A stretch of 62,795 nucleotides of DNA, filler included, from Collodictyon triciliatum (GCA_043381765.1; 5 parts of 5 records of this genome joined end to end with filler, not necessarily neighbours in it), one strand, 5' to 3'. Counted from the first letter of the whole stretch, positions 25,304 to 50,313 are shown. Numbers and translations: made by a program. The notes: generated by a model from the sequence alone, not told the origin.

Positions 25304-25990
25304 CTATCTCCCACACATCACCACCTGCTTTGGAACTACTTGCCTGATGGTTGAATGAAAGATTGTTGAGACGGGCTCAACAGCTAAGACTTTTAGAATA
25401 AAAAAAAGACGCCTTGGACACTTTTTACTCATGACCGTAAACTTTGCAGGGAGCTGGTTCCTGTGACAAAGAAGCTTCACCACGGCTGTGTCTGTGAAAA
25501 AGCCTTTGTCCTTTTTGATCTCCACGTGGGTCGGTCTGAACGGCTTCAGCTCCTCACGAATAAGTTGCGGCCACAAGCCCAGCGGTAGTTGGTAGATCAT
25601 CACCGAGGACTCTGTTGGTTTACTTCTGCTGAAGCTGATCGTAGTATCGATCAAACTTATCTGCCTCAGTTCCAGAAGCTTTCGGGCGTTCTCTGCAGTG
25701 CGGAAGGCGATCAGGCAAAGGCCTTCGCTGTCCGGTAATCGCAGTTGAATGAACTCGTCCCAAAGTTTGTTCGCTTTCAAGAAGGAGGCGAGCGCATCTG
25801 TTAGTCTGCGGGCCTTGTTCTTGTTGTAAACGACTTGCTCGACATCGTGCAAAAATACTGTCCGCTCAGACAGACTTGCAGGCGGCTTCCTTGCGCGGGT
25901 CTTCCTAGACTTACGTGCGACTCGGGGTTTCTGCACCAGCGTTGGAACCAGAAGAACTGGCAGCAACTTGCAAAGCCTTCCATCTATCAC
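25304..25990 (-). mobile_element. Non-LTR retrotransposon (LINE) ORF1-like fragment
   Basis: Intronless, GC-richer ORF at a contig end. RRM-like tract (LIAFRTAENARKLL) plus VMIYQLPLGL...IREELKPF...GFFTDTAVVKL resembles L1/Tx1 ORF1. No clean start and no intact zinc knuckle. Confidence 0.55.
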
Positions 25991-27646
25991 AATTTACACT
26001 GATTATCCTAGGTCTCCGCCTGTGTTTTCCACGGACTGTTATGAGGAGCTTGACTTGATGTCAGGGATAATATACACAACTCTATTTTATTTTCATTATA
26101 TATCTCGCGCATCGATTTACCATCCTGAGAGGACAATAATTCACAAACTCTAAATCTTCATTAGTTAATTTTCCTGACCAAAATCCTCTCTATGAATCAA
26201 GAATATGCCATAAGCTCCCAATGAAAATAACAGTATACTTTTTTCTTTTTCTTTAAATAAATGAAGGGTCGGATACAAAAAAATATTCAATATTTGTACA
26301 TCATCAGCGATCAGGAAGTAAAAGTGACTATGACTTCGTGGATAACGCACGTATTTATTCACACTTATCACGAGACATTAATTGTTCAACTCACAATTTT
26401 CAAAAAGATAAAACCACGTATAATTCCTTTTTTTTTAATTCAAAACATATCTCGTTTCTATTGCACTTAAGCCCGTTTGAAATTGTTTGCGGATTTATAA
26501 TATACAAGATATTTGATACATTACAAAAAGGGTTAACGAAAAAGAAAGAAAAAGAGGTATTTTCTTAAAAATTCATTTTTCAATTTTAAGCAAAATATTA
26601 CCCTTAAATGATTCAAATTATTTCAATTTGATTCAATATCTCAAGTTTTGAAAAAAAAGAGGTATTTATCTAAAGGCAATTAATATATGATGAAAGAGTT
26701 ATTTTTTTTATGATAATGTGATGTAATCATCTTTATCAAAAGCAAGTTAGGGGTGGATAGATACTTATTGATCCATATTCACCTCGAGCCCATTTCAAGA
26801 ACATTGACCATCTGAAGAAAATATGTTAATACTTGATATTATACACAATCTTTAAGGAAATCCATAATTTTATTCGCATGAAACGAGGTATTTCCCCCCT
26901 GCACATATCAATCTTATGCTGAGTGATTTTTTCTGGACTTGATTTTTTCCCCTTTGTATTAAATTAAAGGGAGCCATTTATTAGTGATTACCTTAATAAG
27001 AAGAAAAAAATTGTGATATTCCACCTCTATAAGGCCCTGGTTCCATTACAAAAATTTTTCTCAAAATTTTAAATATGACTTTGATTTTTTTAAAATTATC
27101 TTTATATACCAATATTTCACCAATATTACTATTTAGTGAATAAAGCTTTCTATTCCATAGGTTTAGACACAAATCTACCTTTTTATTGAGCACTAATTTT
27201 TCAAACGAGCTATGTCTGATAATTTCGGTCGAAATCAGCTCTGTTTATAATGTCAATGTTCAGCGGATCTTGTTTATTTCCATCGAAATATATTCAGTGG
27301 AAATACTTTTTTTTTTTTTTGCAAATTTGAATCGATTATCTTACCTTTGTTCAATAATCACTCTTGAAATCTTTATAAACATTATTTTATTTTTTCCAAA
27401 GTATATTGTCCCAACGAATTAAAATTTTTTTAACTAAAAATACGGATCAGGACTAATGAAAAAGCATTCTTTTGTTGAAATATCCCATATCAATATTTTT
27501 AAAGATGATTCGATTCCTTGTCATGTCAATCATAAGATAATGTAAATGATTGGATTAATCAGTAGGGGTGATTAGTAAAATAATTGTGTATTGAAGTAAC
27601 GTAATGTCAATCTTAAGATTTTTCCAATAGGAGGAATATTCAAGAC

Positions 27647-30600
27647 ATGTCTGCAACCGAAACAAACACCGAGGCCAACATCAGCCTTGTCACCATCGAC
27701 GAAGTCTGCACAAATACACACATATTCATCAAGAAATATTTTATTTATTGAAGAGGATTGATAACTTAATCTGGCAACTGAGCACAGGCTGTCCTGGAAT
27801 GGGTGAACCACCACCTGGGAAAAATCGAGCTCAAGGCGAAAGACATCCGCGATAACTTTATGGACGGATTCTTATTGGCCATGCTGATTGAGACGGTCAC
27901 CGGAAAGTCCTTGGGAAGCTACCATTCCCGCTTGTTTGCGTATGCTTTATTCGTGATATTCACAATTTTATTTTTCCATTTTTTTTCCTAGGATTGGCAT
28001 TTCATCCATTTTATATATCAGTGACAAAGCCATTGAGGAGGAGATTCTTGTTGAAGAGAATCAAAAACTCATCGTTGATTGGTTTCTGAAATTGAATGTG
28101 CATGATGAGGCTGTTGCTTCCCAGGCCCATTACGCTGGTTTGCTTTCAATATTAAAGGGAACTGTTTTAGGATTTTTTCATACATCATCCATTTATTTTG
28201 TTTGAGTGACATATAAATATTCTTACAGATTTGCTCAATGCAATGCTCCAGTATCTTATTGGACAAAGCGTTGGTGATTTGGGAAGCCTTGGGGTAACAA
28301 TATTCTTTTTCATAATTTTTTTATTCTCACGATTTTTTGAACTATGAAGTTTAATTTCCAATCGTTAAAAATTGTAGAAAAAATGTCGTGAGAGGTACGA
28401 TATTGCCAAGAAGCTCTACGAAAGAGCGAAGGCTCCGTTTCCGTTCCATGGTTGAAACTCTATTTTTCTTTTTTTTTCTTTTTTCTTTTTCTTTTTTCTT
28501 TTTGTGATTTTTTGATTTATTTTTATCAAAGACCAACAAAATTAAATTTAAAAATCGATGTAGGTCTTGGTCTGGAAGATAAAGGCTCTGTCGTGCTCAT
28601 CCGCACTTGCATTCTTCTTGACAAGGTAATTAATAATTTATTAAAAATAATAAAATAAAAATTGACCAAATACATTCAGTTTTTGTGAAATATAATGTTG
28701 ATTTCAAACCAGATGAAGCTTGCTCGTGAAGACCTGAAGGAGAGACAATACAAGAAGTGGAATCCGGCTCCACAAAGATACGTGACACCGACACCATTGC
28801 CGCTCATTGTCTTTGACGAGCGTGTCATCCGTGTTTTCCTATCTCCACTTTCCGTGACATGCAGAAAGAAAGAGACGAGTTTTTCAAGAATGGAGCGCCT
28901 GAGTTAGTTTAATCCATCAAATTAAAAAATGAATCTAAAATAAGGAATGATAATTTGATACTTTTATTTTCCTTACAATATAAATTTAATGCCAGGTTGA
29001 AAAGACTTGCGAAATCGAAGGGAGTGGACCTTGTCTTTATCGATTTGCGCTGGGGACTGACTTCTGTGGATAGTAGCGAGGGATGGGTAATCACTTCATA
29101 ATAAAAAATACAATAATATTATTTTTCGAAAATTTTAAGATTATATTGCGTTTTATAAAAAAAACTAGAATTTTCTTTATATTACTTTTCAAAGGTTGTG
29201 ATTCGCTGTTTGGACTCCATCGGAAAGTGTCCATACTTTGTGTGCTCTCTTGGTGCGCGTTACGGCTGGATTCCTGACCAGAACAAAACGGAGCTGAGCA
29301 AACAAGCACGCCTTGAGGAGCTGCTGAATACCAAGCCTGATGCCACCATGAAGGATGTCTGGGTGGAATGGCGCAGTGAAACCAATAGCCGCTTCTCATT
29401 CATTGACGAAATGCCTGGGCTGAGTGTGACTGAATACGAGGTTAAGTCAATCTATACATTTCACCATGTATCATCCATCATGAAAAATTGAGAAATTAAA
29501 TAAACTATTCTCATAATCAAAATATATTTTCAGATTCAGTATGCCTGTCTGATTGACAAACCAGCATGCAGCCGCGCCTTCTTTTACCTCCGTGATGAGT
29601 ACTACGCTGTCCAACATGCCAAGAACGAAGAAGAAAGAAAGCTGTTCCAAGCTGAAAGTGAAGAGGCGGTAAAAATTGATAAAAAGTCTTATGTTTTCGT
29701 TTTCGAGTATATGTTATGATCATTTAATGATTCGATTTTTTGACACATATTTCAATTATATTGATTTTTTTAGCGCAAGAGGCAGGAGGAGCTCAAAGGG
29801 AAAATCAAAGCCAAGTTCGGGCATGTTGTCTACAAAGGAGCGAAGGAGTATTCGGACTTTGTGACTTACCATCTCACCTACGCCATCGAGCGCGACTTTG
29901 GGAATCAAACTGTATTTTATTTTTTAATTAGTGCAACAATATCAGTATTGATTGGTGACATATATTTCATTTATATTTTGTTCACATAAGTATACATAGG
30001 TGAGAGACCCTGAAGACCAAGCGCAGCACCAGTTCAAGATGCATCGACTGGCTGGGTTTGGTGGAAGAAAGGAGCTTCTCAAGACAATTACGGAGCAAGT
30101 AAGTTAAAGGTCAATTAATTAAAATGACAATAATATCCTTTGACTTTTCTTTTCTTATCTATAAATTATTTTTATCAGGCCATGAACCAGCTGAGCATGG
30201 ATAAGTCCAAAATCATCTTTCTTGCTGCAGAGTCTGGTATTGGAAAGTCGTCACTGATGGCTGCTACAGCGAGAGACCTTGAAGGGCTGAAGCATCCTGG
30301 GCTGCATGTCTTTTTCCATTTTGTTGGATGCACCAATCTCAGCAACTACGTGGAAAGGTTATTTCTATTTTTATTTTATTTTTTATAGATATAATAGAAA
30401 TTGTATTGGTTTTTCTAAAAATATTTGTTTTATTTTAGTGTTTCGATTCGCTTCTGGACTTTGGTCGCAAACTCTGCCAATTTCAGTGGGCAAAAGAAAA
30501 AAGAAGCTGGTACTGTATTTCTGTGCTTTATCCTTTTAATTCAAATATCGTGTAATTATTCATGTATTTATGTTATTTTGCCACCAGAATACGCAAAAGA

Positions 30601-33600
30601 GGGACTCCAGGGCTTGCTGAAAATGATTCAGGAGAAAAACAAGTAATGAGTCATTTTATGTATTTTTTTACATTCAATTTTTTTTTTATTATTCCTTTCA
30701 ATTTTGTGCAGGATGGTGGATTTTACATTCAATTATTAAACCAAAATCGATTTACTTTGAATCGAAAAATATTGATATTGATTTTATATTATAGGGACGA
30801 GAAGTTTATCTTCCTCGTCGATGCCATCAACCAAATCCACTCGTCGCAAGGTACACCAGCTCCGCATCTGCTGACCTGGTTGCCCAAAGAAACACCAGCT
30901 AATGTTGCCATGGTTGTGTCAACTATTCATACCCATGAATCTTGCACGGTATTCAGTATTTTTTTAATTTCTGGATATGTATATGTTGCTGTTTTAAGTG
31001 ATTTGAGTGGAACTTTGCTTAATTTATCTGTCATAAGTCTGCCAAGCAAAGTGGACTGGAGCCGATTCCTGTCGCAAAGTTGACCGAGGGCGAAGTTAAG
31101 GACGGTATCGAATCATTCCTCATTCGCTACGACAAGACCCTGAGCGAAAAGCAAGTTGGAATGATTCTGGATGACTTGGAAGATACCGGTGAAACATTTA
31201 AAAAAAAGAGTATATGGTTTGATTAATTTTTAATGGAATGATTTAATTACAAATATCTGAATTTTTATAGGCCATCCGCTTTATCTCCGCATCATTCTGG
31301 ATGAAGTCAGGGTCTTTGGCGTCTATGAGAAGCTTGATGATGAATTGTTTACTCTGCTTTCGACCAGCGGTGTTATTGAGCTTTACACTCTCATTATCAA
31401 GCGCTGGCAACTGAAGTTTGACAGGAAAAGTGAGTATTAGTTTCATATTTTACAGTTAAAAAATGAAAATTATAATTGTAACTTTTGTTGAATGAATTTT
31501 TTTTCAGTGGCCACAACTGATGGAAAAGAGACAATAAATATCGAGTATGTCTCCCTCTCGATGAAGGTTCTCTTTGTTTCCCGCATTGGCCTGACTGAAG
31601 GTGACTTGGACAAGTACATGAAAGATGCGATTGGCACAGGATTCGAGCTTGCTGAATGGTTTGTTTGATTGTTTTTAAAATTATCAACATCATATAATCC
31701 TTTTACCTTTTTTCCAGTTATTCATCTATCTATACCAACAGGAAATCTTTCTTCTTCACTCTCGTCGAGTCACTCTTTGTTCGCAATGGAAGGTTGGTCT
31801 TTTTTATTTTTTATTTAATATTTAAATACGCATGAATATAATTCAGTCATATTTTTATTTTGGATAGAACTTTACTTACTGTTTATTATAGATACATGTA
31901 TTTCCACCAGCTGCTGTTGGAGACCACCGAAAAGGCCTACTTCTTCGAAAAGAAAGAGATTGAAAAAACGCACGAAAAATACGGAGAATGGTTGTTTGGC
32001 CAGTATTCTGAGGCTGCTGACGTGGATGAGGAGCTCGCTGCTGAAATTTGCTACCAGCTTCTGAAGGGCAGTTCGTTTGACTTGCTTGTCGAATACATGA
32101 AGCAAAAACATGTAATCAATCAATCACTAAAGCTTTAATTTATAATTATTTTGAATTTTTGGACATAAGAATTTATTTTCACTGTTTAGTTTTATTGTTT
32201 CATTCATAGGTAATCAGCATCATGCTTGGTGGTCGCTATCGCTACGAGTTCTTTACATGCTGGAGAGCAATCAACGCAAGTGGAGCGGCGAACTATAAAG
32301 ATGTTTATGAAACTCTGGCTAAGGTATTTTATTTTTTCTCTTAATTTCTTTTAATTTTTGATGTGTTGGTGCTCATACAATATTATTATGAATCAGAGTT
32401 TAAATTTTAAACTTTTTAATTTTTTCAGTCTTTGGATAATGTAGGAGACCTGCTTGTTGAATTTTTCTTGGAGTCTTTTGAGAACTCGTTCCTGTTGTCT
32501 GTTCTTAATGCACGTCTTGGAAAGCATCAAACTGAAGGCATTTGATAATTTTTCTTCATAAATTTAGCATCACCAGTAAAGGAACATATATCTGAATGGA
32601 GTATTTAGCATACAATTCATAGTTTCAAGAGCTGATAACTACTTGAATCTTGGCCGTGCCTATAAGAACCTCCAAAAGTAAAAAAAATAAAATAAATTCA
32701 ATGAATGATGAATTATATTTTCCATAGGAATTAATTTCGATTTTTGAATGTTTCCTGTAAAATTGTAATTGTGTAGCTGGTCTGAGTCTATGGTCCAGTA
32801 CAAGAAATGCCTCGAATTAATCGAAAAAAATGAAGATGATTCCCTGCGCATCGCTGCAATTCGTCAAGAGATAGGGGTTATATACCAACAGCAGGATAAG
32901 TAAGGAAAAAATTATGCAAATAATCAATATTGATTAATAAGGCAATATTTTATATCTGTGATAATACAGAGTTGACGAGGCTATGGAAGAGTACAGGAAA
33001 TCTTTAAAATTCAGAATAAAACTACTGGAAGCGAATGACTTGCAAGTGGCTGAATCATATGACCACTTTGGTGATATCTATCTCAAGCAGTTAAAGTAAT
33101 TAGTTTTTTATATAATTTCTATTCAGCTTATGAAGGTAATTCGTAACATATAATGTGGACAATTTTATTTATCATAGGATTGAACAAGCTATGTTTGAAT
33201 ACAAAAAAGCCATGGAAATCCGCCAAAAGAAAGTTGGAACCGAGCACCCTCTTGTAGCCATATCATACCAAAATTACGGCCATGTGTGTCTGGCTGAGAG
33301 AGGGTAATATATCTCCGAATTATTCATTAATGTGTAAGTTTTTTTATTTTATTAATTTTTATTTTAAAGAAAGTGATAATACTTGGATTCTAAAGGTATG
33401 ATGAATCTGTTGAAAACTACAAAAAAGCAAGATTAATCTTTGAAAAATCGCTGGGAGCCCAGCACGCATATGTTGCTTCAACAATCCAATTTATTGCAAA
33501 TGTGTTTCTGGTTGTTGGAAAGTAAGAAAAGCTCACATTCACATTTGTATTTACACTGAAGCGTTCTGTGTAAAAAGTGGGTTCTAAATTCTAGGAAAAC

Positions 33601-36133
33601 TGAGGCATTGTCCTCATTAAAGACATCACTAGATATTTTCATATCTGCCCTTGGTGAAAATCATCCTAATGTTTTGACTAGCTATGAGCTCATGGCGAAC
33701 ATCAGCTATGATTTAAACGAGTATGATCATATCATAAAATTTCAATTATATTACTTAAATATGAGTATGAATTGACAAAAACATACTGAAGTAAATTCAG
33801 TTTTAAAGGGGCTTTGAAAGCTTTTGAAAAGACTCTCGATATATGCAAGAGGACACTGGGCGAAAAGCACACCAAATATGCGACTTTATTAGAAAATATT
33901 GGCAGAACAAACTTCGAACTTCGGAGGTGAATATCTTCAGTGAACAATTTTTTTATGCATAGAATTATATCAGAAATATTTATGTATTTGATAATGAATG
34001 ATATGTTGATTTCTCTTTCATTCATTCAGATTAGATCAAGTAATAGAGTACTTCCAGATGGCAGTCATGATCAGAATAGAATCAAATTCGGTTATGGCTT
34101 TAAAGTATGGACCAGAAATCCAAAACATAATTCGATTCATGAAGGAAAACAATGAATACAAAATAATTGTCTGTCTTTACAAAACACTGATTCACATATT
34201 ATGTGAAATTTACTCCCTGAATAACCTTGGCATATGGAGCAGCTGTGAAGAAGTTGATAGGATTTTCAAACAATTCACACATTACGACGAAGCAGTAAGT
34301 TTTTGGACAGAAATGAGAGACCAATTTTCTGATAAACTTGGATGGATTCACGCCAGAACATTAAATTCATGCGAGTACCTATCCTATCATTCAAAAAAAA
34401 CTGGAATCAACAGAGAGCCCGCCGAGTTTACAAGAGCTAAGGAATTTATCATGAAAAATCTTGATGATTCAAAACTGGATGAAGAATGGAATCGTGAGCA
34501 AATAATTGCATCATTATTCATGATTGTATACATGTCAAAGACTGATGAGAGCAAATCAAAGGCTGCGTCTGATGCAATCACCCTTTTGAATTTTATGAAT
34601 GTTTCATTCGAAGGCATGGATTTATCAAACATCAAAATTCCAAATGCACATCTCAGTAATTCAATCCTTGATGGTGCAAATTTTACTGGTGCCAACTTGG
34701 ATGGTGTTGACCTCACGAATTCGGTGCTTGGTGATAGTATTTTTGATAATGCGAATATGAATAGTGTGAAATTTGGAATTCCTCATGATAAATTGGAAGA
34801 ACATACAGATTCTATTCGAAGTCTTTGCAGTATTCAAGGAGTAAATGGTGAACATTGGTTGGCCTCCGGAAGCTGTGATAGTACGATATGTATTTGGGAT
34901 ATATTTACTGGAAAATTAATCAGAAAGTTTATAGGACACAGAAGTTCTGTAAACAGTGTTTGCAGTATTCAAGGACCAAATGGTGAAAATTGGCTGGCTT
35001 CTGGAGGAAATGATACAGTAATACGTGTTTGGGATGTAGCCACAGGAAACCTAATCCGAACCTTGGAAGGCCATAAAAGATATGTCGAAAGTATCTGCAG
35101 TATTAAAGGACCAAATGGTGAAAATTGGTTGGCTTCAGGAGGAAATGATACAGTAATACGTGTTTGGGATGTAGCCACAGGAAACCTTATCAAAACATTA
35201 GAAGGTCATGCAGAATCTGTTAACTGTGTTTGCAGTATTCAAGGACTGAATGGTGAAAATTGGCTGGCTTCTGGAAGCAAAGATAAAACAATACATATTT
35301 GGGATATAGCCACAGGAAACCAAATCAAAATATTGGAAGGTCATACTGATTGGGTTATCACTCTTTGTAGTACTCAAGGACCAAATGGTGAAAATTGGCT
35401 GGCCTCTGGAAGTAATGACAACACGATACGTATTTGGGATATAGGCACAGGAAACCGAATCAGAAAGTTGGAAGGCCATATTAGCTGGATTCGAAGTGTT
35501 TGCAGCATTCAAGGACCTAATGGTGAAAAGTGGTTGGCCTCTGGAAGTGGGGATAAAACCATATGTATTTGGGATGTAGCCACTGGCAACAAAATTAAAA
35601 TAATGAGGGTCCATACAAGCCGTATCTTTGGTGTTTGCAGTATTCAAGGACCCAATGGTGAAAATTGGTTGGCATCTGGGAGTCTCGATGAAAGGGCTCA
35701 CGTTTGGGATATAGATGAAAACCAAACACGCAACTCGCAAAAAACAGAAATGACCTACACCCAAGGAAAATACCTTGTCAAGAATGGGAAGCCAGATGAA
35801 GTCATCGCAATATTTTATATGACAAGTGATGCGATGAACATGATTGATACTAACAGAATCCAAGATGCAAAGACATTCCAGATTATCGGCCCAAGAAAGC
35901 TGCAAGGTGGAAACATCCTAATCAGAAATGTCGCAGGATTGAGTATATTCAACAAATCCCTCCTACTTTCAATCGGTGCTGCTTCCTTTGATGCGGACTT
36001 TGCTGCCTATTGTGAGCAGGGCAAGTTCACAAAGTTCCAGGCTGGAATGATGGCTGAGTGCTATGAAAACGGATGGGGTGTTGAAAAGGACACCGAGAAA
36101 GCAGCTGAGTGGAGACATAAAGCCACAGCTTAA
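27647..36133 (+). CDS. NLR-like STAND NTPase: CH-like, DUF4062, NACHT (NPHP3/TEP1 type), TPR, pentapeptide, 7xWD40, Sel1; one frameshift near 28843
   Basis: CH-like VLEWVNHHL...DGFLLAMLIETVTG. DUF4062 RVFLS[S]TFRDMQKER, DLRWG, LGARYGW, SVTEYE. Walker A AESGIGKS, Walker B FIFLVDAINQ, GHPLYL, SRIGLTE, YFHQ. TPR exons 32777-33926. Final exon from 34030 splices in frame into the 691-aa ORF. Confidence 0.85.
34795..35712 (+). repeat. Seven coding tandem WD40 repeats, 135-nt (45-aa) unit, high DNA identity
   Basis: Recurring tgcagtattcaaggaccaaatggtgaaaattggctggcttctgga unit. Protein consensus GHxxxVxxVCSIQGPNGENWLASGxxDxxIxIWD. Confidence 0.95.
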
Positions 36134-37648
36134 GGAAGTAAGTAATATCAATGAATATTTATTGATATATATTTTCCAACTATTATCATATGAAGTGGTA
36201 AAATTATCTAGGTTTCATCGGCGGGTAACATCATCTTTCCTCCCGAAGCATTGCATCAAAGACAAAATAAAGACATAAAAGAAATCTTCATGTTGGTTTC
36301 TTAGACTATTTTGTTTGTTACTTGGGAGCACTCTATGGAGCTTATTGATTATTGAAATTGTGTGCCACAGTTCAAAAAATGCGCACCAATAACTGTCATT
36401 GAGAGGGAGCAGGGTGTAATAGATGAGTTTGGTTTTATACACTTTTGAGCACGTGAATAAAAAATTACATTCGCCTAGAATCTTCATTATTAGCTTGGTT
36501 CGCAAACATGGATTACCATATCTCTAATTGGCATGAATTCAGTATGGTTGCTTTATTTCACCAGTATTGCTCTTGTTATTCCTCTTTTTCGTGGAGGCAC
36601 AATCAAACAAAAAATGATCAAAATGAAGACTTTGACCTCGAGAAAAGTCATCTTTGACCCTTTGTCACAATGAGTATGAAGAATGAAATAAAAACACAAT
36701 TGGCTTCAAATAACTGAATGAGCGCATTTTAAAATATTGATGTATATAAACTAAAGAAGAGGCGCTATAACACTACTTTTTTTTTTTAACTCTATATTAC
36801 CTTCATGAAGTAGTTATTAAAAAGCTTAATCATTGGACTGCCACAAAAATAAAAGCATATCGAATTGAAATAAACAATGACAAAAATTCTAATAAAAAAA
36901 AAGGTTTACAATAATAAAATTCCAAATTAGTGTCTCTAGGAGCGTCGATTATATCAAAAAGATTATGGTTCAAGCGAACTTGAATGAGAAATTATCACCT
37001 TAGTGGATGTGATATGTACCAGCAAAAGGAACGTGGCGAAACTTTGCTATTAAAAAAAAAAAGAATTAATTAATTATATCTGGCTATGAAAATCTCTTGT
37101 GGTCGACACAAATGCATTCACCAAGAGCAGGTCGGATGGCTATCTAGGATTTCACAACTTTTAAGACGCGATGCCCTTTGGTTTTGCACAAAAACCACAC
37201 GTATGGCAACCAAGCCTCAACTTTGACGACGAGAATGTGGTATACGAGCATACCAGACGCGACCGGTGGAGCGAGCAGCGGGGCTGCAGGAGAAGAGACT
37301 CTACCCGGCCGGCTGCGTGGTGCGCCTGGTGGGCGAGTACACTGAGACACTGACGCACGCCACACACCTGCGTCTGCTGGAGCAGCTGTACGAAGTCCAC
37401 CGCATCCGCGAGTGCGCCACGGAGGGCGTTGTGCTGCTGGCATCCGACCTGTCGAGCGGCCTGGGCCTTGCGTACCCCCGCAGGGCGACGGCCGAGCGCT
37501 TTGCCCCACAACAAAGGCGAAGCCACACCACAGCTCGTGCCGATTCCAGAGTCAGCGCACACACCAACCCAGGCAAAACTCCCGCCAACCCCAAAGACTC
37601 CACAAGAGGCTCCCCTTCCGCTGCGGACAAAGACCCAAACGTGGCCTC

Positions 37649-37748
37649 NNNNNNNNNNNNNNNNNNNNNNNNNNNNNNNNNNNNNNNNNNNNTTAATTAA
37701 TTAANNNNNNNNNNNNNNNNNNNNNNNNNNNNNNNNNNNNNNNNNNNN
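37649..37748. other. Artificial contig linker
   Basis: N44-TTAATTAATTAA-N44. Confidence 0.97.
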
Positions 37749-50213: not shown

Positions 50214-50313
50214 NNNNNNNNNNNNNNNNNNNNNNNNNNNNNNNNNNNNNNNNNNNNTTAATTAATTAANNNNNNNNNNNNNNNNNNNNNNNNNNNNNNN
50301 NNNNNNNNNNNNN
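50214..50313. other. Artificial contig linker
   Basis: N44-TTAATTAATTAA-N44. Confidence 0.97.

Follow-up and report, generated by a model that had tools for sequence, protein, structure and literature searches.

The stretch of DNA analyzed here (the window, 62,795 nt) comes from the protist Collodictyon triciliatum (GCA_043381765.1) and is made up of several contigs of about 12.5 kb each, joined by spacers of the form N44-TTAATTAATTAA-N44; adjacent contigs need not adjoin in the genome. One of these contigs (25171-37648) carries a long spliced gene with a single frame break, and the predicted product combines, in order, a CH-like region, a TIR-like DUF4062 domain (TeTIR), a NACHT NTPase, a TPR solenoid, a pentapeptide beta-helix, a 7-bladed WD40 propeller and a Sel1-like tail. 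The parts that mark the TeTIR-NACHT family of STAND proteins are all present: DUF4062, a NACHT-type NTPase adjoining it downstream, and C-terminal WD40 and TPR repeats.

Gene model

An earlier note on this DNA, made from the sequence alone, proposed one spliced gene at 27647-36133, and both ends proved exact, with the start ATG at 27647-27649 and the TAA stop at 36131-36133. The 30 introns are short (70-152 nt, median 87.5), 29 being GT-AG and one GC-AG, and mean GC is 44.9% in exons vs 22.1% in introns. The closest homologues are open reading frames (ORFs) of assembled transcripts from Diphylleia rotans (EukProt). The product of one, P0014 (2619 aa), aligns with the spliced model by blastp in a single alignment of 1811 columns, far beyond chance (model residues 18-1811, homologue residues 187-1977, 48.5% identity, 1750 bits). 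Three others give long alignments as well: P0040 (model 20-1777, homologue 127-1917, 38.8% identity, 1275 bits), P0015 (746-1915 and 2-1215, 42.6%, 978 bits) and P0042 (602-1778 and 1-1260, 38.2%, 889 bits). Because a single transcript of a relative, that of P0014, encodes a product colinear with the model throughout this alignment, the locus is almost certainly one gene with the described architecture, and not two.

The proposal of a single spliced gene is borne out both by this alignment and by spliced contigs of relatives, the joints or loose ends of which match at least 12 of the 30 introns exactly, among the 15 of 58 joints that were listed. These contigs come from sequencing runs X3 and X4, which are RNA by guess only; they are 90–96% identical to the window and derive from close relatives or paralogues, not from this locus. 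The remaining 18 introns were set from splice consensus, frame and homologue alignment, the last of which fixed the end of exon 17 at 31188 and the start of exon 20 at 31742. At the only GC-AG intron, the 17 divergent letters at the joint of an X4 contig correspond to the first 17 bases of exon 24. Near the start of the gene, an X4 contig of depth 48.4 spans 27666 and a contig of equal depth spans exon 2. A sigma-70 promoter and terminator scan upstream of the gene was set aside as meaningless for a eukaryote.

P0014 has an additional N-terminal stretch (residues 1-186) with a second CH match (Pfam, two stretches), which has no counterpart upstream of 27788; a tblastn search of the contig found no upstream exon resembling it. 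Possibly the head is shorter in the window gene, or an exon further upstream was missed. Directly after the stop codon (36133-36143), the X3 and X4 contigs of relatives carry other letters, which have no match in the window. A GTAAGT lies 5 nt past the stop, and the difference may represent a diverged 3' untranslated region (UTR) or an intron within a 3' UTR.

Domains and repeat arrays

Every domain named in the earlier note was found, by Pfam on exons, by homologues, or by AlphaFold and Foldseek for the last exon. Pfam scans were run on single exon pieces. The CH match on exon 2 (21.8 bits, E 2.2e-4) falls under the 26-bit cutoff, and the corresponding regions of the homologues score 47.2 bits (E 2.8e-12) in P0014 and 20.6 bits in P0040. 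DUF4062 (PF13271) is detected on exon 9 with 25.0 bits vs a cutoff of 24.7 (E 2.2e-5); the same exon gave no matches to PDB sequences at E up to 10. Exon 13, which holds the Walker A motif, matches NPHP3_N, NACHT and AAA_16, all under cutoff, and the NTPase region aligns with TEP1-like, NWD2-like (P0097) and TPR-type homologues. The related Diphylleia product P0041 is above cutoff for both NPHP3_N (29.3 bits) and DUF4062 (43.6 bits), and Pfam NACHT is listed for many more distant matches. The NTPase motifs are intact, GIGKS and FIFLVD lying about 140 residues past the TeTIR glutamate.

The C-terminal half is built of repeats. TPR_12, TPR_10 or TPR_NPHP3 is matched on all six TPR exons (E 0.1 to 3.9e-7), one exon passing the cutoff by itself. 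The helical linker that follows corresponds to no Pfam family, and a metagenome scan with it found no related locus. Pentapeptide repeats are detected with 50.6 bits vs a cutoff of 20.2 (E 1.3e-13), and in the AlphaFold model they form one-residue strands every 5 residues (predicted local distance difference test, pLDDT, 86-90), the pattern of a quadrilateral beta-helix. The WD40 region gives seven Pfam stretches (E 5e-54) and 28 modeled strands, equal to seven blades; the best Foldseek matches are 7- and 8-bladed propellers, with TM-scores (normalized to target length) of 0.85-0.90 for the 7-bladed ones. The Sel1 match in the tail (27.4 bits, E 4.7e-6) is under the cutoff of 30.7, and its motif is present in the consensus of a six-sequence alignment.

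With a 6-row alignment, AlphaFold modeled the last exon at a mean pLDDT of 80.4, as ten paired helices, a pentapeptide ladder, a propeller of 28 strands, a disordered spacer and a small tail of helices; the single-sequence model is poor outside the propeller. Foldseek on the 6-row model returned propellers only, and is uninformative for linker and tail. In a word-based search, residues 1-255 of the last exon matched bacterial pentapeptide proteins only, and a search with the tail (last-exon residues 561-700, against proteins of near length) matched nothing. Look-alikes of the tail in a protein atlas are Sel1 clusters (scores 0.80-0.83), a weak lead. Coordinates are collected in Table 1.

Table 1. 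Features of the gene and of the window (positions counted from the first nucleotide of the window)
Feature	Position	Strand	Basis or remark
Whole gene	27647..36133	+	31 exons, 1916 codons plus stop, one frame break
Exon 1 with start ATG, 19 codons	27647..27703	+	Sequence
CH-like region, exons 2-6	27788..28625	+	Pfam CH
DUF4062/TeTIR, exon 7 (part) to exon 10	28821..29668	+	Pfam on exon 9; alignment with 64 homologues
Frame break, one base fewer than relatives	28842..28843	+	In first strand motif of DUF4062
Catalytic-position Glu (GAG codon), last E of SVTEYE	29438..29440	+	Last codon of exon 9; putative equivalent of TEP1 E1008
NACHT-type NTPase with helical and winged-helix parts, exons 12-23	30000..32537	+	Pfam on exon 13; homologue alignment
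Walker A, GIGKS	30236..30250	+	
Walker B strand, FIFLVDAINQ	30805..30834	+	DA.NQ form common to most non-TEP1 rows
Sole GC-AG intron	32538..32622	+	Joint 32537/32640 in an X4 contig, 17 letters diverging
TPR array, about 7 units of 42 aa	32623..34156	+	Exons 25-30 one repeat each; 7th unit opens last exon
Helical linker, paired helices, solenoid-like	34157..34606	+	AlphaFold pLDDT 69-93
Pentapeptide repeats, about 10 units	34607..34780	+	Pfam PF00805
Seven WD40 units, 7-bladed propeller	34814..35710	+	Pfam, AlphaFold, Foldseek
Low-confidence spacer	35717..35896	+	pLDDT <50 in both AlphaFold models
Conserved C-terminal tail	35897..36130	+	One Sel1-like repeat at 36047-36124
Stop codon TAA	36131..36133	+	Relatives' contigs match to 36133, then diverge
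Spacers between contigs	12486-12585, 25071-25170, 37649-37748, 50214-50313		

TeTIR residues

DUF4062 has been described as TeTIR, a TIR-like domain with NAD+-hydrolyzing (NADase) activity, in two preprints (Osinski et al. 2026, bioRxiv 10.64898/2026.05.01.722283; Hornebeck et al. 2026, bioRxiv 10.64898/2026.09.21.753143). It lies directly upstream of NACHT in TEP1, NWD1, NWD2, NPHP3 and TTC41 (both preprints). NADase activity of human TEP1 depends on E1008, and F902, R914, R942, C959 and R976 are also needed (10.64898/2026.09.21.753143). Activity has also been found for the TeTIR domains of TEP1 homologues from zebrafish, sponge and Dictyostelium (both preprints), and NPHP3 is without the catalytic Glu (Hornebeck et al., 10.64898/2026.09.21.753143).

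In an alignment of 65 TeTIR rows, some of them near-copies, we infer the TEP1 numbering by counting along the fish TEP1 rows, and on this mapping all the positions needed in TEP1 (F902, R914, R942, C959, R976 and E1008) are kept in the window protein. The second E of SVTEYE is E in 58 of 65 rows and the first in 44. The window also keeps the F (60/65), the R of ERD (65/65), the RWG (63, 63 and 64 of 65), the C (59/65) and the R of RYG (63/65). The R908 position is conserved in 30 of 65 rows, which fits a published remark on its weaker conservation. That DUF4062 is TIR-like and potentially enzymatic, as the earlier note had it, thus agrees with the two preprints and with a Glu of SVTEYE standing at the catalytic position; given an intact frame, the window TeTIR would probably be an active NADase. 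Following the RYGW motif, exon 9 encodes a 24-residue insert (29264-29335) that may serve as a subfamily marker; among the 45 of 65 aligned rows that were listed, it occurs only in the window, in P0014 and in its cluster mate P0039.

A frame break in the DUF4062 exon

Tblastn alignments of homologues change frame at 28835-28847, and in X1, X3 and X5, which are all the runs covering the site, one contig each, derived from relatives, has one extra C behind 28842. With this C, the translation would match the FLSSTFRDM of the homologues, the opening strand motif of DUF4062. The codon beside the break is at the S905 position of TEP1 and is unreadable in the contig as written. The earlier note had described one spliced gene; its single gene stands, but the break in the DUF4062 exon had gone unnoticed, and the contig as written does not hold one open frame. 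No other lesion was found in 1916 codons (5.75 kb of coding sequence) or at 60 splice sites, and for this reason the break is attributed either to an assembly error or to a very recent inactivation, of which the error is the likelier and a real inactivation the less probable.

WD40 unit pattern

The seven WD40 units are each exactly 45 aa (135 nt) long, match one another at 76% in DNA and have a mean protein identity of 59–60%. All seven find their best match within the same protein, and are only 33–48% identical to the units of homologues. Since each unit is most like other units of the same protein, the pattern points to amplification or homogenization within the gene. Variation is limited to a few columns, which follow the GH pair or surround D-x-T and I-x-I-W and which we take to be loop positions on the top face of the propeller. 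In contigs of relatives, WD40 units between 34955 and 35625 are joined in such a way that a net 270 nt is skipped, the length of two units (285 less 15 intervening letters, and 279 less 9), while other joints step back to a similar extent; either the relatives differ in their number of units, or the contigs are placed ambiguously within the repeat.

Relatives and phylogeny

When the first 210 residues of the last exon, which cover the linker, were used in an exhaustive HMMER search, three full-length matches came up among 1.84 billion representatives, all of them Diphylleia rotans transcript ORFs. Diphylleia has at least eight related transcripts that differ in repeat content (P0014, P0040, P0015, P0042, P0013, P0041, P0022 and P0031), and P0022 and P0031 have the pentapeptide cap in common with the window. 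This distribution speaks against a widespread single-copy housekeeping orthologue, the outcome that the earlier note had said would count against its proposal, and the protein belongs to a lineage-specific multigene family. Colinearity of P0014 and P0040 with the window protein starts at the CH region and extends as far as the propeller. The window and Diphylleia products have linker, pentapeptide cap and tail in common, and the window and P0014 also the TeTIR insert. They also differ: P0014 has the extra N-terminal CH-like stretch and 13 anchor-matched WD40 units vs seven in the window, while P0041 has TPRs without WD40. Because identity is 48% or less, the Diphylleia products are to be regarded, on sequence grounds, as paralogues, or as orthologues in another species. 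No paper on these products was found in the literature, and they are unannotated.

A search with the TeTIR-NACHT part of P0014 recovered 61 proteins, the top four being Diphylleia transcripts. These were followed by DUF4062-NACHT-TPR proteins (from Ptychodera, Tieghemostelium and Physarum, and others), and then by DUF4062-NACHT-WD40 proteins (TEP1-like and NWD-like). In a quick maximum-likelihood tree of 54 rows (midpoint root; 14 near-copies or short matches left out), the window pairs with P0014 (Shimodaira–Hasegawa approximate likelihood ratio test, SH-aLRT, 99), and is joined next by P0040 (85) and then by the TPR-only P0041 (100). This clade is placed within a set of 17 rows (SH-aLRT 99) of which the others are 12 rows labeled TPR-type and two with neither repeat type, a topology that suggests a TPR-type ancestor that later gained the pentapeptide-WD40-Sel1 extension. 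The protein does not appear to be a TEP1 orthologue, as no exon piece matched TROVE or VWA in Pfam and the tree puts the window and TEP1 in opposite main branches. It also differs from NPHP3, which has a TPR-only C-terminus and no catalytic Glu: in the window the Glu is kept and pentapeptide and WD40 repeats are added. No named NPHP3 is present in the tree.

Comparison with known systems

The window protein most resembles the TeTIR-NACHT family of TEP1, NWD1, NWD2, NPHP3 and TTC41, with a TIR-like DUF4062 directly before NACHT and C-terminal repeats. It keeps the catalytic Glu, RWG, Cys and Arg positions, and has direct similarity to TEP1-like and TPR-type members. The published members, among which a few protists are included, have either WD40 or TPR repeats (Hornebeck et al., 10.64898/2026.09.21.753143), whereas the window protein has TPR, pentapeptide and WD40 repeats in series. 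Its head is CH-like and not TROVE/VWA, its tail is Sel1-like, and it belongs to an expanded, protist-specific clade. Plant TNLs and APAF-1 likewise combine an N-terminal effector (a TIR NADase in TNLs), a central STAND NTPase and a C-terminal repeat sensor, and are activated by ligand-driven oligomerization in the accounts given by the preprints (10.64898/2026.05.01.722283; 10.64898/2026.09.21.753143). The window protein would operate along similar lines but is not a member of these groups. It has NACHT in place of NB-ARC, TeTIR in place of canonical TIR, and no LRR.

Other likenesses concern single parts. Hexamita inflata P0026, a 'pentapeptide repeats-containing protein', has a short run of pentapeptides after NACHT and just before WD40, and its N-terminal cap motif is the same as in the window; however, similarity extends over only about 50–60 residues, and neither DUF4062 nor TPR is among the best 25 of its 33 Pfam families. 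A caspase-NACHT-pentapeptide protein (P0021) also matched the start of the window's pentapeptide region. Fungal NLRs of the HET-E/NWD type, with their highly conserved WD40 repeats, presumably offer an analogue for the tandem, fixed-length units that are alike within the protein and vary at few loop positions, although they carry a different effector domain and their repeats come closer to being identical. Kaur et al. (2020) name pentapeptide, TPR and propeller repeats among the superstructure-forming modules of bacterial conflict systems.

The earlier note knew of no description of this architecture, a claim that now needs qualification. The core TeTIR-NACHT arrangement, with WD40 or TPR, is known since 2026, and a pentapeptide array before WD40 and after NACHT is also found in P0026, which lessens the novelty of the array mix. 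The full combination was not found in print: the literature covered, which did not include the preprint supplementary figures that possibly list protist architectures, held no TeTIR-NACHT protein with TPR, pentapeptide and WD40 repeats together, nor a CH head, a Sel1 tail or a Diphylleia family of such proteins. The three-array chain, the CH head and the Diphylleia family of at least eight transcripts therefore look new.

Surrounding sequence

The contig ends had been described as repeat-like. This applies in part to the left end, which has a short T-rich stretch, but not to the right end, which is GC-rich and not a repeat: between 37100 and 37648, GC rises from 31% to 60.5%. The same interval has long open frames on both strands, and could represent another gene, a mobile element or a mis-join; Pfam found no match on 37227-37646. 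Upstream of the gene is an open frame of 229 codons on the reverse strand (25304-25993), to which no Pfam family was matched. On another contig, an open frame at 2715-3245 (forward strand) includes a stretch that, by eye, we take to resemble part of a kinesin motor. The remaining contigs of the window, searched by tblastn with the model, hold no paralogue that this search could find. DNA contigs identical to 32669-32967, 32845-33038 and 33758-34050 occur without any difference in freshwater-metagenome runs of two studies (X1 records 4-5; X5 records 28-29), and because of this the organism, or one with near-identical DNA, lives in fresh water.

Proposed role and alternatives

We read the locus as one protist gene, its product being a STAND-type switch in the TeTIR(DUF4062)-NACHT family. 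The likeliest setting of this switch is defense or regulated cell death, and we assign the whole reading a probability of roughly 0.55. The role in defense or cell death, taken by itself, is drawn from analogy and has about an even chance. An immune function is plausible, and two independent sensors and a cytoskeletal tether by way of the CH-like region, along the lines of the earlier note, are putative. What the locus provides directly is a list of parts and residues, and a mechanism can be proposed on the pattern of APAF-1, of plant TNLs and of what has been suggested for TEP1. In the off state, the long C-terminal repeat structure would hold NACHT. A ligand would bind the repeats, of which the propeller loop positions are the most variable surface, and binding would lead to nucleotide-dependent oligomerization. 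Oligomerization would in turn bring TeTIR domains together for hydrolysis of NAD+, and the outcome may be cell arrest, cell death or a signal.

Several points weigh against this interpretation. In a three-frame reading, exon 7 (28713-28902) changes frame at 28842/3, within TeTIR. NACHT, CH and Sel1 on the window's own exons remain under curated cutoffs, with the assignments resting on homologues, and the repeat-type labels of the tree come from the best-ranked Pfam families listed per protein. No eukaryotic family member is a proven immune receptor, TEP1 being found in vaults, and purified human NWD1, NWD2 and NPHP3 had no NADase activity (Osinski et al., 10.64898/2026.05.01.722283); three prokaryotic TeTIR homologues were likewise inactive (Hornebeck et al., 10.64898/2026.09.21.753143).

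Two alternatives concern the integrity of the gene. That two adjacent genes (CH-TeTIR-NACHT-TPR and pentapeptide-WD40-Sel1) are present, or that the assembly is a chimera of paralogues joined near 33927-34030, might be argued from a last exon that is unusually long for a single exon and from the sparse cover around the junction, with no contig of any run over 33420-33720 and next to none from the RNA-like runs X3 and X4 over 33420-34322. However, exons 25-30 are 123 or 126 nt long with phase 2 in and out, the end of exon 30 and the start of exon 31 share the phase of the five TPR exons that come before, and the first part of exon 31 encodes another TPR unit. The equivalent of the exon 30/31 junction lies inside one transcript ORF in five homologues (P0014, P0040, P0015, P0042 and P0013), so that transcripts of a relative run through a junction before which, according to the earlier note, transcripts would have to end (before 34030) if there were two genes. 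A 293 nt DNA contig of X5 equals 33758-34050 without difference, a weak point as it extends only 21 nt into exon 31. A division of the locus is thus very improbable, and close to refuted already. A young pseudogene is a more serious contender, although still doubtful, and is compatible with the other readings. If the missing base is real, translation would stop soon after residue 219 and no TeTIR-NACHT protein would be made. The break does stand in the contig, and 3/3 runs covering the site show the extra base, yet in contigs of relatives and not at this locus; large receptor families commonly carry pseudogenes. Against inactivation, there is no second lesion, the 1916 codons are otherwise open, 30/30 introns are GT/GC-AG, the GC contrast between exons and introns is intact, and a single missing base is a common assembly error.

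The remaining alternative accepts the same protein but assigns it a non-immune function, as a regulated scaffold or NAD-linked switch with a housekeeping or developmental role, for example in the cytoskeleton or flagellar apparatus. This would be in keeping with the animal members, which by the evidence are not immune receptors, TEP1 being a vault component (10.64898/2026.05.01.722283), and with a published link between Nwd1 and the formation of purinosomes. A head of CH type suggests an association with the cytoskeleton, and the tree puts the TeTIR-NACHT module in the TPR-type branch (17 rows, SH-aLRT 99). On the other side, the catalytic Glu that is reported absent in NPHP3 (10.64898/2026.09.21.753143) is kept in the window. 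The Diphylleia family is multi-copy with variable repeat content, and the WD40 units are homogenized within the protein and have variable loop columns. Homogenized WD40 repeats with variable loops occur in fungal NLR-type proteins and are not known as a mark of housekeeping propellers. A purely non-immune role is accordingly considered unlikely, and a STAND-type switch working in defense or cell death remains the preferred reading.

Implications

TeTIR/DUF4062 domains were recognized as TIR-like NADases only in 2026. The protist family described here is a natural test case for a defensive role of TeTIR-NACHT proteins outside animals, because it keeps all catalytic residues, is multi-copy, and has an elaborate and apparently fast-evolving repeat sensor. 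The gene also shows that three kinds of superstructure-forming repeats can be strung together in a STAND protein, and the placement of one TPR per symmetric exon would ease the remodeling of the sensor. As a tentative extension, Diphylleia and its kin, a deep-branching lineage of protists, may have built their own TNL-like immune family, in which TeTIR would be the executioner, NACHT the switch, and a composite TPR-pentapeptide-WD40 rod the sensor. Such a family would diversify through exon-sized TPR units and through homogenizing WD40 repeats that vary at loop positions, with CH as a cytoskeletal anchor or guarded decoy. If true, NAD-depleting STAND immunity would have arisen independently in eukaryotes that are neither plants nor animals.

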